Source: Candidatus Aenigmatarchaeota archaeon
GTDB taxonomy: Archaea; EX4484-52
Length of the DNA stretch: 31,861 nt
Direction: 5' to 3'
NCBI GenBank assembly: GCA_023137195.1
Contig: JAGLPV010000007.1
Span: 1-31,861 of the forward strand
Numbering within the stretch: the first letter of the stretch is position 1; each line of letters opens with the position of its first letter. The translations under genes and the position numbers were made by a program. The notes beneath the pieces are model-generated. The model saw nothing but the letters and a program-made list of their open reading frames with translations, made no database searches and was not told the origin of the DNA. Positions 16,028 to 23,342 of the stretch are shown here, one piece after another.

Positions 16028-17803
16028 ATGAAAGTTATACATCATATCAAAATTCGATACTTCCGATCAATAAAGGAACTAACGATTTCCAAAATTGATG
16101 AAGTAAATATTTTTTCAGGAGCAAATGATTCAGGTAAATCCAATATCTTAAAGGCTTTAAATCTATTCTTCAATGAACAAACAAACTTTCAACAAAAACT
16201 AATTTTCGATGAAGAGTTTTCAAAAGAAAGATTAGATGATGTAAGAAAAAAATCAATCAAAGGAAGACAAATCATCGCCATCAGAATATCATTCTGTGCA
16301 CCTTCAGGACACAAGAATTTACCAAAGACCTTTTATGTGGAAAAAGCATGGGATAGAGATGGAAAGTTAATCTCTAGTAATGATAATGTTATATCCCAAT
16401 ATAAGAAGGGTAAAACTAAGGCTAAAACTGAAAAAACAGCTAAACAGGCACTATCAAGATTTATAAATAGTATACATTATGAATATATTCCTGCAGTTAG
16501 ATCACCAAAAATTTTTGATAATCTCCTAACATTACTCCAAGAGTTAATACTATCGAAGAACAAAAAAAACACTAAAATTAGTGGTCTATTAACCAATATC
16601 AATGACGAAACAAAAAAATTCACTGAAAAAATTAGTAAGGATTTTGAAAAAATATCAGGTATAAAATCTGGGATAAGGACCCCTTCTGAATTTCAGGACT
16701 TTTTCAAAAGTTTTTTTATTGATACAGAAAGTGGGCAATTCAGTATCCCTTTGAAATTACGAGGCGACGGCATTCAAATGAGATACATCCCTACAATACT
16801 TGACTATATCACAAAAAACTCAAGAGGTATTTTTATTTGGGGATTCGATGAGCCAGAAAATTCAACTGAATACTCGCTTTGCGCTCAAATGGCAGATGAT
16901 TTCAAAAATATATTTGCAAAAAATTCACAAATTTTTATCTCCACACATTCATTTCACTTTACAACATTACGAGGGGAAAATGTCTCAAAATATAGAGTGT
17001 ATAAAGATAAGATAAATGTTAATTCTTTAGTAACATTACTGAAGGATGACGGACAATTAAAATTATTTGGAACTTCTGACACACAAAAAATAAATGAAGA
17101 ACTCGGAATATTAGATATGCATAAAGCTATCGCAAATGAATATAGAGAATGGCAAGAAAATAAAGACAAATGGCTATCTATGTTTGACAAGCTAAAGAAA
17201 CAAATCAATGATGATGGAAATCTTCCAATACTTTTTGTTGAAGGTAAAACCGACAAAATAATCTTGGAAAAAGCTTGGAAAAAGCTAAATCCGAGCAAAG
17301 ATTTACCTTTCAAAATAGTAGAAGCTTTTGACCGCTATTTCCTAGGTAATACTTTTGCAAGAGGAGATATTTTCAGAAACTACCCTTCAAAAAAATTCAT
17401 AGGTATGCTTGATTTCGATGATGGTTATGACAATTGGGTTGGGTTAAAAAACGGGAAAAGAGGTAACAGTCAATATAATGAAACTGAAAATGATAAGAAA
17501 AAAGGCTTAACAATAAAACATGTTAAAGAAAATGGTTATGTATTCCTATTGCCTGTCCCAGATTCAAGAAAAAAATATGCCGATGCTACATATGGAAAAT
17601 CCTACCTTACCATAGAGCTACTCTTTTCAGATAATCTGTTAAAAGATTATACTAAAGAAATTACATTAGCTGGAGGAGGAAAAGTAAAAAAGATAAAAGA
17701 TTCAAAAAAAGAAAGTTTTTCAAAGATAGTCAAAGATTTTAAAAAAAACGAGTTTGACAACTTTAAGGCAATTTTTGATCTTATAGAAAATTTAATAAAA
17801 TAG
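16028..17803 (+). CDS. OLD-family ATP-dependent nuclease (ABC/AAA_15-type ATPase + TOPRIM), candidate anti-viral defence protein
   Basis: Walker A GANDSGKSN, signature-like RGDG, Walker B/D-loop GFDEPEN, H-loop STHS; TOPRIM LFVEGKTD, DFD and TIE. Confidence 0.82.
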   Translation: MKVIHHIKIRYFRSIKELTISKIDEVNIFSGANDSGKSNILKALNLFFNEQTNFQQKLIFDEEFSKERLDDVRKKSIKGRQIIAIRISFCAPSGHKNLPKTFYVEKAWDRDGKLISSNDNVISQYKKGKTKAKTEKTAKQALSRFINSIHYEYIPAVRSPKIFDNLLTLLQELILSKNKKNTKISGLLTNINDETKKFTEKISKDFEKISGIKSGIRTPSEFQDFFKSFFIDTESGQFSIPLKLRGDGIQMRYIPTILDYITKNSRGIFIWGFDEPENSTEYSLCAQMADDFKNIFAKNSQIFISTHSFHFTTLRGENVSKYRVYKDKINVNSLVTLLKDDGQLKLFGTSDTQKINEELGILDMHKAIANEYREWQENKDKWLSMFDKLKKQINDDGNLPILFVEGKTDKIILEKAWKKLNPSKDLPFKIVEAFDRYFLGNTFARGDIFRNYPSKKFIGMLDFDDGYDNWVGLKNGKRGNSQYNETENDKKKGLTIKHVKENGYVFLLPVPDSRKKYADATYGKSYLTIELLFSDNLLKDYTKEITLAGGGKVKKIKDSKKESFSKIVKDFKKNEFDNFKAIFDLIENLIK

Positions 17804-18539: not shown

Positions 18540-20210
18540 ATGAAACAACCAACAATCGGCATAATCGGAGGAACGCACGGATTAGGAAACTGGTTCAGGA
18601 CATTTTTCCAAAAAAACAAATATCCTGTCCTGGTATCCGGAAGAAAAACCCAACTGACAAATACAGAATTGACAAAACAATCAGATATTATAATCATTGC
18701 AGTCCCGATTGACGTCACTCCAAAGACAATAAAAGAAATCCTCCCTTCCTTAAAAGACAACTCTTTATTGATAGACATAACTTCCCTGAAGACAGAACCT
18801 GTAACTGAAATGAAAAAAGCAAAAAAAACAGTTGGCGTGGTAGGTCTGCACCCGATGTTTGGTCCCTTGGTCACCAGCATACAAAACCAGCACATAGCAG
18901 TATGCGAAGCAAGAGAAAACAAATTATGGCACGACCTAAAACAATTTTTTATCCAAAACAAAGCAAATCTAATAGACATAAGTCCCGAAGAACACGACAG
19001 GCAAATGGCAGTAATGCAGGCACTTCTTCATTTCGTAAATTTGAGTTACGTAAAAACACTTCAGGACAGCAGGATAAAACCAAAAGGCAAATTTTCAACC
19101 CCGGTCTTCCAGCTCCAGACAATGATTTTCGGCAGGATTTTAGGACAGAATCCCTCTCTCTATGCAGACATACAAATACAGAATCCAGAGTTTAAAGGCA
19201 TACTGGACTCGTACATAAAAATCACAAATGATGCAAAAAAAACAATAGAAAACAAAGACAAGGAATCCTTCGTGCAAAAGTTCAATGCATTAAAAAAAGA
19301 ACTGGACTTCTTTATCAAAACATCAGAAATAAAGACAACTTCTATTTTAGACCAAAAAAACAAGACCAACATAAATATCACTTTTTCCAAAACTCCCACC
19401 GGAAAAATAAAAAAAGTAAGCTATCTCGGACCATCCGGCACCAACACCCACATAGTAGCATCTTCCCTCTTTGGCAACAAAACATTAGCTCCTTCAAATA
19501 CAATCAACTCCGTTTTTGAAGAAATAATTAACAATGATGCAGATGCAGGAATAGTTCCCGCGGAAAATTCCACAGAAGGTGTTGTCTGCGAGACATTTGA
19601 CAATCTTATAAATTCCGATGTTTTTGTAAACACATCCGTAAAACAACAAATACATCACAATCTGCTTGCAAGGACAAAAGACATAAATTCAATAAAAACA
19701 GTCGTATCGCATCCACAGGCAATTGCCCAGACAAGAGGATGGCTCAAAAACAATCTTCCAAATGCAGAAGTGATGCTTGGAACAAGCACAACAAAAGCAA
19801 TCCAACAGCACAAAGACAGTTCCGTTGCCTTTGTCGGCGCAAGGGAAGCGGCAAAAGAATACAATCTAAATATACTCTCAGAAAACATTGAGGATGTAAT
19901 AGGCAACACAACAGAATTCTATGTAATTTCAAAAAACAAAAAACTGGACGAAATCTACCAACCGACAAAAACTCTTGTAGCTGTAATTGCATACAATAGA
20001 GTGGGCGTCCTGAGAGACATCCTGTCAATTTTTGCAAAATACTCCATTGACCTGAAAAAACTATTTTCCCGCCCGGGCAGGACAAAGCAATGGGATTATT
20101 ATTTCTTTATAGAAGCAGATATAAAGCAGGACGATCCAAGACTAATCAAAGTTCTGGATAATCTAAAGGACTATTGTCATCTGGTAAAGGTTTTAGGCGG
20201 AACAAATTAA
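18540..20210 (+). CDS. tyrA-pheA: Fused prephenate dehydrogenase - prephenate dehydratase (with ACT domain)
   Basis: N-terminal IIGGTHGLG, DITSLK, HPMFGP, EEHD; C-terminal YLGPSGT, PAENSTEG, SHPQAIAQ, NTTEF, SRP...WDYYFFIE. Confidence 0.9.
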   Translation: MKQPTIGIIGGTHGLGNWFRTFFQKNKYPVLVSGRKTQLTNTELTKQSDIIIIAVPIDVTPKTIKEILPSLKDNSLLIDITSLKTEPVTEMKKAKKTVGVVGLHPMFGPLVTSIQNQHIAVCEARENKLWHDLKQFFIQNKANLIDISPEEHDRQMAVMQALLHFVNLSYVKTLQDSRIKPKGKFSTPVFQLQTMIFGRILGQNPSLYADIQIQNPEFKGILDSYIKITNDAKKTIENKDKESFVQKFNALKKELDFFIKTSEIKTTSILDQKNKTNINITFSKTPTGKIKKVSYLGPSGTNTHIVASSLFGNKTLAPSNTINSVFEEIINNDADAGIVPAENSTEGVVCETFDNLINSDVFVNTSVKQQIHHNLLARTKDINSIKTVVSHPQAIAQTRGWLKNNLPNAEVMLGTSTTKAIQQHKDSSVAFVGAREAAKEYNLNILSENIEDVIGNTTEFYVISKNKKLDEIYQPTKTLVAVIAYNRVGVLRDILSIFAKYSIDLKKLFSRPGRTKQWDYYFFIEADIKQDDPRLIKVLDNLKDYCHLVKVLGGTN

Positions 20211-20255
20211 TTGCAGTCTGGATTAAAAAGACGCCGCCAAAAATCCAAAAACAGG

Positions 20256-20269
20256 CAAAAATATATAAA
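20256..20269 (+). promoter_or_regulatory. BRE/TATA promoter of the aromatic operon leader
   Basis: CAAAAA followed by TATATAAA (20262-20269), 35 nt before the leader ATG. Confidence 0.6.
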
Positions 20270-20304
20270 TCTATCTTGTCTAAAACTAATAAAGTAGTGA
20301 AAAT

Positions 20305-20382
20305 ATGAAAATAAGCAAACTCAAATCAAGTCGCGTCTTATCGAGTTCGTTTGTTTTTTTTCTGTCATTTTTTTATAGTTAA
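20305..20382 (+). CDS. Putative Phe/Tyr-rich leader peptide (25 aa, MKISKLKSSRVLSSSFVFFLSFFYS)
   Basis: ATG 20305 to TAA 20382 with 5 Phe and 1 Tyr in the last 10 codons; GTGA SD-like motif upstream; precedes aromatic biosynthesis genes. Confidence 0.6.
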   Translation: MKISKLKSSRVLSSSFVFFLSFFYS

Positions 20383-20483
20383 ATAAAGCTTCACTTTTTG
20401 GAGGAGAGGCTTTTAATGAATATATTAATTCTATAGAAGACGGCAGACAACTACTTTAAACAAACAAAAAATAAGGAGATTGT
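20349..20483 (+). promoter_or_regulatory. Structured attenuator-like leader
   Basis: 20361-20378 pairs with 20431-20447 (16 pairs including G-U); inner hairpin 20385-20413; 20447-20458 can pair with the SD region 20472-20483. Confidence 0.55.
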
Positions 20484-20485
20484 AT

Positions 20486-22036
20486 ATGATACTAAATGTA
20501 AAAGGTCACAGGAGAGAACTAAAAAAAATAGTTGTAAAAATAGGCGGATCTGTATTAAGCACAGATGATGCCATATCTCAACAGGCAAAGTGGATTAAGA
20601 AAATAGCTGAGAGTGTCGATACACTCCACATAGTTGTTTCTGCAAAAAAAGGGCATACCGACATCCTTGTAGAAGAAAGCAAATCAATGCCTGACAAGCA
20701 AAAAGCAGTGCACCAGATAAACGGCGAGATAGAAAGCGTAAAAAAACTTCACAAGGAACTAAAAAATATCGGTGTAGACTCTAAGCAAATCATCCAGGGA
20801 ACAAAAGAATACCCTCTTGTAGGAAAAGGGCATTGGCTAGATGGCAGGATAGACCTTGAAAAAAGCAAGGAACGCATGCATAAGCTGAACCACAAATTGT
20901 GCATAATATCTGGCTTTGGAGCAGAAACTCTCGAAGGAGACATAATACTCCTGGGAAGAAATGCAACAGATTTAGTGGCAGCAGCAATAGCAAACCTGGA
21001 CAATGCCGATGCAATAATATATTTAAAAGATACTCACGGGGTGTTAAGAGACATAAAAGACAAACATTCCACTATTTCCCATATTTCGGCAGAAGTGCTG
21101 AAAAGAAATGTCGAAGAAAACAAATGGGAAGTTCTGCATCCGGACACACTTGATTTTCTGCATCCAAACATAACCGGAATAGTGCAGAAACACACACAAG
21201 AGATAGGAAAACAAAGTACGATTATACATAAAGGTGGAAGTAATATGATAGGAAAAAGCATAAGAATGGAAAGAATAATGAACAGGGAATCCAATAAAAT
21301 AGTAGTAATACCCCTGGACCATGGAGTAACGATAGGTCCATGCAAAGGTTTACTGGACATGGGAAAGACTGTTGACAAAGTTTCAGTCGGTGGCGCAAAC
21401 GCGGTTCTGGGACATATTGGTCTGCCCTTGCACGGGCATAGAGGCTATGGAAGAGATGTAGGTCTGATTCTGCACTTGTCTTCAAGTACGACGCTTGCGC
21501 CGAACCCAAACACAAAGGTATTGACCGGCTCGGTTGAACAGGCAATAAAGATGGGAGCAGACGCAGTATCCGTACACATCAATATCGGTGCTGAAGATGA
21601 ATCCAAAATGCTTGCAGATTTAGGACACATTTCACAAAAATGCATGGAATGGGGAATGCCACTTCTTGCAATGATGTACCCCAGAGGTCCGGGCATAAAA
21701 GATTCTTGTGATGTAGCAGTAGTAAAGCACGCAGTAAGGATTGCAGCAGAACTCGGTGCAGATATAATCAAGACCAACTACACAGGCAGTGCAGAAACAT
21801 TCAGGGAAGTTGTAGATGGTGCCATGGGTGTGCCGGTTGTAATTGCCGGCGGTGCAAAAGGAGCAGAAATAAACACTCTTATAATGGTCGAAGATGCAGT
21901 CAGAGCAGGAGCAAGAGGAGTTGCCATGGGAAGGAACGCATTCCAGCACGAGAGCCCGGAAAAACTTGTTAAAGCTGTCTGCCAGATAGTCCATGAAGGA
22001 AAAACTGCAAACGAGGCAATAAAAATACTTCAATAA
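20486..22036 (+). CDS. aroA': Fusion of an ACT-less aspartokinase-like domain and 2-amino-3,7-dideoxy-D-threo-hept-6-ulosonate (ADH) synthase
   Basis: N-terminal VVKIGGS, VVSA...TD, SGF, LGRNATD, VLHP; C-terminal (from ATG 21245) PLDHG, HLSSST, GADAVSVHIN, AMMYPRG, ELGADIIKT, GRNAFQH; SD AAGGAG. Confidence 0.85.
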   Translation: MILNVKGHRRELKKIVVKIGGSVLSTDDAISQQAKWIKKIAESVDTLHIVVSAKKGHTDILVEESKSMPDKQKAVHQINGEIESVKKLHKELKNIGVDSKQIIQGTKEYPLVGKGHWLDGRIDLEKSKERMHKLNHKLCIISGFGAETLEGDIILLGRNATDLVAAAIANLDNADAIIYLKDTHGVLRDIKDKHSTISHISAEVLKRNVEENKWEVLHPDTLDFLHPNITGIVQKHTQEIGKQSTIIHKGGSNMIGKSIRMERIMNRESNKIVVIPLDHGVTIGPCKGLLDMGKTVDKVSVGGANAVLGHIGLPLHGHRGYGRDVGLILHLSSSTTLAPNPNTKVLTGSVEQAIKMGADAVSVHINIGAEDESKMLADLGHISQKCMEWGMPLLAMMYPRGPGIKDSCDVAVVKHAVRIAAELGADIIKTNYTGSAETFREVVDGAMGVPVVIAGGAKGAEINTLIMVEDAVRAGARGVAMGRNAFQHESPEKLVKAVCQIVHEGKTANEAIKILQ

Positions 22037-22053: not shown

Positions 22054-23046
22054 ATGAAAAAATTCTGGGTAGATGCAAGGAAATGGGACAAGAAAATAGT
22101 CACAACTGCGCTTGAGTCAAGTGCAGATGCAGTTGTTGTAGAAAAAGGATTCACTCCAAAAGTAAAAGAGTTGGGTCTAATAAAAACAATAGCAGAAGAC
22201 GGAGATATGAAACTCAAAAAAGACATAGTGGATATAGAAATCAACAGCAAACAGGACGAAATAAATGCGGCAAAAATCGGAAAGACAAAAACCGTTATTC
22301 TAAAGACAAACGACTGGTCGATAATACCCATTGAAAACCTCATCGCCCAGGATGCAGAGATTGTCGCAAATGTAAAAAATGCAAAAGAAGCAAAAACAGC
22401 TCTTGAAATACTGGAGGTTGGAGCAAGCGGCATTCTCCTGTCAACAACAGATTTAAACGAGATAAAAAAAACAGGCAGACTCCTGAAAGAACAGCAGGAA
22501 AAACTCACACTTGTAAAGGCAAAAATCACAAAAATAGAAGCAGTAGGATCCGGCGACAGGGCATGTGTAGATACCTGCACAAACATGGTACAAGGACAGG
22601 GTATGCTTGTCGGTAATTCAAGTTCAGGAATGTTCCTTGTGCATTCAGAAAGTGTTGACAACCCATACGTTGCCGCAAGACCATTTAGAGTAAATGCCGG
22701 TGGAGTCCACGCCTATGTAAAAGTAACTGGCAACAAGACAAAATACCTCTCCGAAATCAAGTCAGGAGATAAAGTGCTGGTAGTTGATTCAAAAGGAAAC
22801 ACAACTGAGGCAATAGTCGGCAGGAACAAAATAGAAAAGCGTCCGATGATGCTGGTAGAGGCCCGCACAGAAGACAAGGAAATATCCCTGATATTGCAGA
22901 ATGCAGAAACCATACGCCTCGTAAAACCAAACGGCAAACCAATATCTGTAGTGAATATAAAAACAGGAGACGAAGTGCTGGTATATACAGAAAGCGCAGG
23001 AAGGCATTTCGGCATGAAAATAGACGAGACAATAAATGAAAAGTGA
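22054..23046 (+). CDS. aroB': 3-dehydroquinate synthase II
   Basis: DWSIIPIENLIA, GDRACVDTC, RPFRVNAG, LQNAETIRL, GRHFG; SD GGAGG. Confidence 0.94.
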   Translation: MKKFWVDARKWDKKIVTTALESSADAVVVEKGFTPKVKELGLIKTIAEDGDMKLKKDIVDIEINSKQDEINAAKIGKTKTVILKTNDWSIIPIENLIAQDAEIVANVKNAKEAKTALEILEVGASGILLSTTDLNEIKKTGRLLKEQQEKLTLVKAKITKIEAVGSGDRACVDTCTNMVQGQGMLVGNSSSGMFLVHSESVDNPYVAARPFRVNAGGVHAYVKVTGNKTKYLSEIKSGDKVLVVDSKGNTTEAIVGRNKIEKRPMMLVEARTEDKEISLILQNAETIRLVKPNGKPISVVNIKTGDEVLVYTESAGRHFGMKIDETINEK

Positions 23047-23342
23047 AAAGTACAATGCAATACGATAATGAACTGGATGAATTGAGAGAGCAAATAGACC
23101 AAGTTGACAAAAACATATTAAAACTCCTCGCAAAGCGGTTTGAACTCACAGAAAAAGTAGGGATTTACAAAAAAAATCATGATTTGCCTTCATGCTCAGA
23201 AGACAGGGAAACTCTTCTTTTCAAAGAAATAAAGAAACTTGCAGAAGAATTAAATCTCGACACCAAATTAGTGAAAGATATATTTGAGTTAATCTTAGCA
23301 AGGGTTAAGGAAAATCACGAGCATATAAAAACCAGCGATTAA
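23043..23342 (+). CDS. aroQ: Chorismate mutase type II (AroQ)
   Basis: LDELREQIDQVDKNILKLLAKR...VGIYK...DRE; GTGA overlap with the upstream stop (ATG 23055 alternative). Confidence 0.9.
   Translation: MKSTMQYDNELDELREQIDQVDKNILKLLAKRFELTEKVGIYKKNHDLPSCSEDRETLLFKEIKKLAEELNLDTKLVKDIFELILARVKENHEHIKTSD

Follow-up and report, generated by a model that had tools for sequence, protein, structure and literature searches.

The window analysed here, a stretch of 31,861 nucleotides (nt), is contig C55 of an archaeal genome bin of 1.42 Mb (85% complete, 35% G+C) whose host belongs to a small DPANN-type group, the order, class and phylum of which all contain an identical set of 42 species genomes. On its forward strand, a spacer of 275 nt separates a fused tyrA-pheA gene from aroA', the first gene of an operon that continues with aroB' and a chorismate mutase gene. 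Positions 20261 to 20485 of this spacer probably represent the promoter and a leader of about 195 nt for the aroA'-aroB'-chorismate mutase operon, with transcription starting at about 20288-20292, as inferred from the promoter. A short open reading frame (ORF) in this leader is likely to encode a regulatory leader peptide, i.e., a ribosome-stalling sensor of the supply of aromatic aminoacyl-tRNA, as judged from sequence comparison. The features of the locus are as follows (SD, Shine-Dalgarno motif).

18540-20210, + strand: tyrA-pheA, the gene upstream of the leader, a prephenate dehydrogenase-prephenate dehydratase-ACT fusion (Pfam PDH_N, PDH_C, PDT and ACT)
20261-20269, + strand: TATA box of the leader transcript, TATATAAA at 20262-20269, which matches the genome-wide motif and stands in a block identical in genome G001 of the same genus
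20305-20382, + strand: leader ORF of 25 codons, MKISKLKSSRVLSSSFVFFLSFFYS by translation, with a homologous ORF in G001 and analogous ORFs in genus g6, in locus L145 and in Methanomicrobiales
20350-20376, + strand: aromatic codon cluster (F16, F18, F19, F22, F23 and Y24), with T-runs of 8 (20354-20361) and 7 (20368-20374)
20458-20478, + strand: A-rich tract (20458-20472) followed by the SD of aroA', AAGGAG (20473-20478), an SD-like motif typical of internal genes
20486-22036, + strand: first regulated gene, an amino-acid-kinase domain fused to aroA', a DeoC-family ADH synthase (Pfam AA_kinase and DeoC)
22054-23046, + strand: aroB', 3-dehydroquinate synthase II (Pfam DHQS)
23043-23342, + strand: chorismate mutase (Pfam CM_2)

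The first-pass annotation of this DNA had pointed out the TATA box and the 25-codon ORF, and both are present as described. The ORF ends with FVFFLSFFYS, with Phe or Tyr at six of the last ten codons, a cluster of the kind that characterizes leader-peptide attenuators; its product has a basic N-terminus and a hydrophobic C-terminus. Among 2,000 dinucleotide shuffles of the spacer, only one contained an ATG-initiated ORF that had 12 or more codons and 6 or more aromatic residues in 10. In the T-rich genome itself, 9 of 617 sense intergenic small ORFs are equally aromatic (561 upstream regions, about 1.6%), and of the eight other aromatic-rich ORFs, the seven that were checked all precede genes outside the aromatic pathway. 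Because real upstream regions of the genome give such ORFs more often than shuffles do, the leader ORF taken alone is mildly unusual and constitutes weak evidence, and it is the comparative evidence that decides.

The two T-runs of the ORF could be either Phe codons or terminators. The density of runs of at least seven T is 0.34 per kb for sense coding sequence versus 1.36 per kb for the 80 nt following genes, and two of them within the 78 nt of the leader ORF are very unusual for coding sequence in this genome. The ORF might be a product of chance, its T-runs being the oligo-T terminator of the upstream tyrA-pheA gene that happens to be readable as Phe codons. The absence of any T-run between the tyrA-pheA stop (20210) and the leader, the enrichment of T-runs after genes and the number of equally aromatic ORFs all agree with such an origin. 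However, the T-runs lie downstream of the conserved TATA box, the leader of G001 has shorter T-runs and no tyrA-pheA gene upstream, and the frame is conserved where T-runs are not, which makes this explanation very improbable. As a separate observation on the whole genome (G000), sense coding sequence contains about 5-fold fewer T-runs of at least seven than A-runs, and the sequence just after genes is about 4-fold enriched in such T-runs, a pattern consistent with oligo-T termination.

The promoter context sets aroA' apart from other genes that open an operon. As the first-pass annotation had held, most operon-initial genes of the genome appear leaderless: TATA-like motifs peak 25-34 nt before the start codons of 489 such genes (103 matches in two bins versus 1-16 in each other bin), and SD-like 5-mers precede 36 of these 489 genes versus 94 of 377 internal ones, being about three times commoner before the latter. 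aroA' possesses an SD and has no TATA box at the leaderless distance, and it therefore resembles an internal cistron. This bears on the possibility that the ORF stands alone as a small gene encoding a hydrophobic peptide, equipped with a promoter and a hairpin-plus-U terminator of its own, and that aroA' is transcribed from a second promoter in 20414-20450. The succession of promoter, ORF, hairpin and U-run does resemble a complete small gene, the peptide has the basic and hydrophobic ends mentioned above, and the hairpin is followed, in the window as well as in G001, by TATA-like strings rich in A and T. These strings nevertheless do not match the promoter motif of the genome and are located 46-66 nt from the ATG instead of 25-34 nt, whereas the SD of aroA' is that of an internal gene. 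Moreover, a membrane span would need a longer hydrophobic stretch than the one of about 15-17 residues present in the window and G001; inspection of the translations indicates that this stretch is missing from the L145 and Methanomicrobiales peptides and that the N-terminal halves of leader peptides diverge freely, so that only the aromatic tail is common to all. The ORF always stands directly before an aromatic-pathway operon, while its upstream neighbour varies. An independent gene is accordingly an improbable explanation, and we retain that of a leader peptide.

In the order as a whole, nine of the 42 genomes were seen to contain aroA', namely 3 of 4 of genus g1, that of the window (whose own genome is counted), and 6 of 8 of genus g6, which belongs to another family. 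BLASTN of the leader against all 42 genomes retrieved G001 only, a match in G003 being limited to the promoter. In G001, the homologous leader precedes an unfused aroA' in a different neighbourhood; its ORF, MKINSIRKYVALWSNLFFILSFYYFS, keeps the frame across a length difference of one codon, with exchanges of Phe for Tyr and one added Trp, and the same hairpin follows its stop codon. In g6, the kinase-aroA' gene adjoins tyrA, which is the first gene of the operon (confirmed by Pfam), and the leader ORF is encountered before tyrA, downstream of a TATA box, with the tail FFSFGYFGAFWIFGFYF or a similar one before the stop. This was the case in G027, G041 and G008, which are all three genomes with a contig reaching upstream of tyrA, the other three g6 contigs ending short of it. 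The g6 leader peptides are MTSMKVCFKSMSESMNTVHFFSFGYFGAFWIFGFYF, MTPINACFESMNTSDFFSFGYFGTFWTFGFYF and one that ends with GNWCGFFSFSYFGTYNFSFYF. G008 exhibits TTC and TAC where the other g6 leaders have TTT and TAT, i.e., the synonymous changes that the earlier annotation had announced as decisive. It had also named conserved T-tracts in a non-conserved frame as the pattern that would speak against a leader peptide, and the opposite was observed, since the aromatic reading frame is conserved among relatives and the T-runs are not. The g6 leaders have no U-run after the hairpin and a U-rich stretch inside its loop, and directly behind the stop, one arm is common to two hairpins that exclude each other.

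Beyond the order, the 350 nt upstream of aroA' were scanned in 160 loci from genome and metagenome collections, in which no match to the aroA' domain query exceeded 69% (metagenome) and 83% (genome) identity. Among 149 unique upstream regions, nine contain a sense ORF with at least 6 aromatic residues in 10, compared to three in antisense and 23 of 2,980 dinucleotide shuffles (about 1.2 expected per 149). One of these loci, L145, is an unrelated contig, rich in A and T, that has a TATA box of the archaeal type and carries aroA (EPSP synthase), aroK (shikimate kinase), the leader and aroA' in this order; its leader ORF is MSKTSISRGKQDDFASMRNSFYYFYFWQ with the tail FYYFYFWQ. Its folds with ribosome masks gave no consistent picture. 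On the same contig, long AAT-type triplet repeats, reading as poly-Asn in one frame, occupy L145:380-550 between the EPSP synthase and shikimate kinase genes. Bacterial aroA' loci present textbook leader-peptide attenuators: two unlabelled metagenome contigs of 51-52% G+C (L139 and L143) encode peptides with YYWRWYWRF followed by a classical hairpin-plus-U terminator, and two Gracilibacteria records (L111 and L106) encode FYFYGFYFW and FWGFYFYYF, also with terminators, L111 having by eye an antiterminator arm directly after the stop.

A further set of leaders was traced from a locus labelled Methanoculleus (L082), whose leader has matches in 103 of 201 sampled genomes of an order that, from the lineage of Methanoculleus, we infer to be Methanomicrobiales. 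These leaders share a 5' core of about 30-60 nt with 79-94% identity (for example L082:1270-1510), and an open frame with an aromatic tail was found upstream of aroA' in all 52 loci that were compared (L236-L267 and L274-L293). In the 32 close loci, the frame extends from the conserved start region to a tail such as GAAAFYRYFIWFIQF before the stop. In the 20 distant loci, where only the core of 30-60 nt was matched, aroA' lies about 200-340 nt downstream and the frame remains open through a divergent middle to tails such as RFFFAYFAYF, FFEYFYRF and FFGYYRYFFAYFFSFGFWYRF. At least 5 aromatic residues in the last 12 were counted in 49 of 51 loci (the anchor pattern missed one locus), versus 3 of 92 control ORFs in other frames. 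The ORF measures 44-75 codons from the conserved anchor; it would begin at a GTG, and an ATG-initiated frame of 15 codons (MCGECFFAG at its start) overlaps its beginning, so that either could be read. Two to six bases after the stop begins a pyrimidine-rich arm that pairs with the SD of aroA', the arms varying by lineage and staying complementary, as judged by eye. In the folds of six leaders, the SD has an unpaired probability of 0.05-0.37 in the free RNA, i.e., it is sequestered as in translational attenuation, and a ribosome masked on the end of the ORF raises this value to 0.37-0.64 in four of the six.

In all four archaeal groups, the aromatic tail is followed by the stop and then by a hairpin starting 0-6 nt later. 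The search suggested by the first-pass annotation, for a short ORF with a Phe/Tyr/Trp cluster upstream of aroA' orthologues, was thus positive in G001, in three g6 genomes, in L145 and throughout the Methanomicrobiales set, and its overall interpretation as a leader peptide gains support from comparison over two archaeal lineages and from the bacterial counterparts.

The predicted RNA structure of the window leader is composed of the following elements.

20290-20298, + strand: 5' arm of helix P1, pairing with 20450-20458 as a perfect 9-nt inverted repeat and similar to the SD region of aroA' (in G001, both partners of two pairs are changed)
20307-20358, + strand: P2, 20307-20316 with 20349-20358, around a small inner hairpin (present in both minimum-energy folds, window and G001)
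20361-20447, + strand: P3, 20361-20366 and 20369-20378 with 20442-20447 and 20431-20440, 16 base pairs, enclosing P4 (minimum-energy fold)
20385-20413, + strand: P4, the hairpin 2 nt after the stop, 20385-20392 with 20406-20413, ending with GAGGCTTTT (fold; stem kept in G001)
20447-20483, + strand: alternative stem over the SD, 20447-20458 with 20472-20483, competing with P1 for 20450-20458 (constrained folds; equivalent stem of 6 base pairs in G001)

The leader folds with a z-score of -2.2, and 6 of 200 shuffles fold as well. The window and G001, the two alignable sequences on which the comparison of this fold rests, fold independently into the same three-way junction, and 8 of the 41 pairs of their consensus fold are changed on both sides yet remain paired, including 2 of 9 in P1. 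In P3, five pairs are changed on both sides, whereas P2 is missing from the alignment-based consensus owing to indels. Among the variants listed for the contigs of four sequencing runs, a strain variant of one run carries changes at 20436, 20444, 20447 and 20450 that all keep pairing, either wobble or Watson-Crick, and the lack of ORF changes among these variants carries no weight. The 5' arm of P4 is pyrimidine-rich and its 3' arm GGAGG-like, followed by four U in the window and six in G001; this hairpin was not among the calls of a consensus terminator scan of the + strand. The pairings that the first-pass annotation had drawn are all present in the sequence, among them the 16 base pairs between the Phe/Tyr codons (20361-20378) and 20431-20447 and the hairpin after the stop. 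As to its U-rich/A-rich pairing, 20346-20356 is complementary to 20458-20468 (11 nt, 91%), but the best fold pairs the U-rich stretch with 20307-20316 instead.

A structure conserved in this way could also be that of a cis-regulatory RNA whose binding partner is a ligand, protein or tRNA, in which case the ORF would be a by-product of U-rich helices paired with A-rich ones and would either remain untranslated or be translated without consequence. In favour of such an element are the three-way junction with its compensatory pairs, the weak initiation signals at the leader start codon, and the 5' core of 40-50 nt in Methanomicrobiales, which is shared at the above identity by 103 of 201 genomes with no third-position bias; conservation there is partly at the RNA level. 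Nevertheless, what the window, G001, g6, L145 and Methanomicrobiales have in common is an open frame with Phe, Tyr or Trp codons near the stop, and neither a sequence nor a fold. Tyr (TAT or TAC), Trp (TGG) and TTC codons break the U-runs while the aromatic residues are kept. In Rfam 15, the window matches only tRNA-Gly at the gathering score and no covariance model for its leader, and five related loci (L007, L145 and the Methanomicrobiales L082, L245 and L258) likewise lack any match up to E = 1. We consider an RNA element without a role for translation unlikely, although less so than an independent gene.

Under the preferred leader-peptide interpretation, the six Phe/Tyr codons among the last ten would make the progress of the ribosome dependent on charged aromatic tRNAs, and its position would decide which of the competing RNA helices form. 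Translation of the ORF, stalling as the signal and the output step are all inferred. Given that the ORF is a sensor, we see about an even chance, on the basis of modelled folds, that the output is translational through RNA refolding. In this decoy model, the P1 arm at the 5' end (20290-20298) and the SD region would compete for a single partner, 20447-20458. Free-running translation of the leader would keep P1 open, the partner would cover the SD and aroA' would be off; conversely, ribosomes held up at hungry aromatic codons would prevent further initiation, which would allow P1 to form again and leave the SD free for the translation of aroA'. When the 5' arm of P1 is masked, as by an initiating ribosome, the predicted SD accessibility, 0.74 in both leaders, falls to 0.30 in the window and to 0.09 in G001, and the stem that had been supposed to hide AAGGAG (20447-20458 with 20472-20483) forms. 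In the free leader of the window, the SD thus has an unpaired probability of 0.74, and values of 0.17-0.30 were reached only by masking the 5' arm of P1 or the entire ORF. The aromatic codons form arms of P2 and P3, and the stop is 2 nt from P4, yet the equilibrium SD accessibility is the same with a stalled ribosome, and P4 is opened only by a ribosome on the stop or the last codon. The original proposal that ribosome stalling controls access to the SD is plausible, but a ribosome masked on the Phe/Tyr codons does not alter the predicted accessibility.

Termination at the U-run behind P4 is a less likely output than the translational one. A classical terminator/antiterminator switch is unsupported, with no excluding antiterminator in the constrained folds and the short U-runs given above, and an upstream antiterminator pairing for P4 noticed by eye was dropped as it is lacking in G001. 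Termination at P4 depending on coupling would have the wrong sign for a biosynthetic operon, because the hairpin would be covered by a ribosome that follows closely behind the polymerase but not by one that stalls early. The first-pass annotation had also imagined that a stalled ribosome masks the U-tract formed by its own codons; by reasoning, this fails on timing, because the polymerase leaves those bases before the ribosome arrives. Mini-ORFs after the hairpin (20416-20436 in the window, and one ending 2 nt before aroA' in G001) are at unconserved positions and were judged to be due to chance.

In addition to the aromatic ORFs found elsewhere in the genome, several observations weigh against a leader peptide or the proposed output. 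The leader ATG has no 5-mer SD match, and its distance of 44 nt from the TATA motif is not that of leaderless genes. The SD of the free window leader is, at 0.74 unpaired, not sequestered as it is in the attenuators of the ermC/cat type, and when a ribosome is masked on any Phe/Tyr codon in equilibrium folds, this value persists, P4 still forms and no antiterminator appears. Leaders of the window type are known from few sequences, two in g1, three in g6 and L145. In the same genus, aroA' of G002 has no leader and directly follows a short ORF, presumably resembling RNA polymerase subunit K, and no clear leader precedes the tyrA-pheA genes of the genus, the orthologues in G001, G002 and G003 being located elsewhere with leaderless-type promoters. 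In the search for analogous leaders that the first-pass annotation had suggested, the trp operon of the window genome proved to have a leaderless-type promoter region and no Trp-rich leader ORF. Substitutions in Methanomicrobiales have no bias toward third codon positions. Finally, the eight sequencing runs that contain the region 20000-21200 are all DNA metagenomes, mostly from cold seeps.

Two side observations concern these other operons. In the stretch of about 130 nt that precedes tyrA-pheA in G002 (L297), an ORF of 40 codons, MDSEISAKTYVNSTSWLTSVQQIKPKGLLLVVFFMFFAI, ends 8 nt before the start codon; four of its last nine residues are Phe, and it may represent a similar but weaker leader. 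Upstream of trpE (G000:C7:4239-4520, - strand), a perfect 11-nt inverted repeat, TTTTGTTCTTG and CAAGAACAAAA, is present between the preceding gene and a promoter-like TATA box.

Sensing of amino acid supply by a leader peptide belongs to the textbook mechanisms of bacteria and has so far been established in bacteria alone. Bacterial attenuators of the pheA, trp, his, leu and thr type likewise place a short ORF with codons for the end product in the leader of a biosynthetic operon, with regulatory codons up to the last one before the stop and structured RNA around them. The window differs by its archaeal host, by the lack of an exclusive terminator/antiterminator pair and by its U-run of 4 nt, which is missing in g6. 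Archaeal polymerases terminate at oligo-U and do not need a hairpin, and bacterial attenuation logic may therefore not transfer. A second bacterial model is translational attenuation of the ermC/cat type, in which a hairpin likewise stands directly behind the leader ORF and is melted by a ribosome that reads the last codons, the output being access to the SD (ermC type as summarised in PMC10219788). The Methanomicrobiales leaders closely fit this layout, except that the signal would be the supply of aminoacyl-tRNA instead of a drug. In the window, on the contrary, the hairpin after the stop does not include the SD of aroA', which is located 60 nt further and predicted to be open in the free RNA. 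The two archaeal leaders share an ORF with a variable aromatic tail and a hairpin directly after it, upstream of aroA', but they have no sequence similarity, and that of Methanomicrobiales has a longer ORF, a strongly conserved 5' core and the SD inside the hairpin.

Known regulators of the same pathway in archaea are proteins that bind DNA in trans rather than translated leaders acting in cis. TrpY of Methanothermobacter is such a regulator of aromatic biosynthesis. Similarly, TK0271 of Thermococcus kodakarensis is described as a protein activator of aromatic genes (PMC6737238). Regarding upstream ORFs (uORFs), the relevant passages of archaeal ribosome-profiling papers consider small ORFs at 5' ends as possible uORFs, "reminiscent" of bacterial leader peptides (PMC11456600; PMC10117724), and the introduction of the uORF4u paper states, citing reviews, that uORFs regulate genes in archaea too (PMC10219788), whereas a Methanocaldococcus promoter study reports no indication of uORFs being translated (PMC2699501). 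Our literature search found no description of an amino-acid-sensing leader peptide in archaea, with ribosome-profiling supplements that possibly list uORFs lying outside its reach, nor any of the Methanomicrobiales aroA' leader.

A broader proposal can be made tentatively, at somewhat less than an even chance. Leader peptides with Phe/Tyr/Trp tails may widely control the entry operon of the aromatic pathway in at least two distant archaeal lineages, a DPANN order with genomes of about 1 Mb and Methanomicrobiales, in about half of the genomes sampled. Since hairpin terminators are not used by archaeal polymerases, the output step would have been reconstructed as translational control, through an SD placed in the stop-adjacent hairpin in Methanomicrobiales and through a decoy at the 5' end in the lineage of the window. 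If the leader of the window works as supposed, ribosome-mediated metabolite sensing would exist in archaea, would have been achieved with different RNA wiring from lineage to lineage and would persist even in reduced DPANN genomes. The question is testable, as some loci with the Methanomicrobiales version are labelled Methanoculleus and cultured species of this genus exist.

The first gene of the window operon and its neighbourhood deserve some additional remarks. The kinase-aroA' fusion has full-length relatives in g6 genomes at 78-81% identity, whereas aroA' of the same-genus G001 and G002 is unfused and 79% and 68% identical; that the fusion is common to the window and to a genus of another family suggests gene exchange or repeated fusion and fission, as far as sequences indicate. 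A kinase domain would be a sensible fusion partner, since aspartate semialdehyde, a substrate of the pathway, comes from aspartyl phosphate. Further upstream, a 591-amino-acid ATPase of the AAA_15/AAA_21 type (Pfam), at 16028-17803 of the window, is encoded in a stretch of 29-30% G+C compared to the genome average of 35%, and this region may be part of a mobile or defence island.

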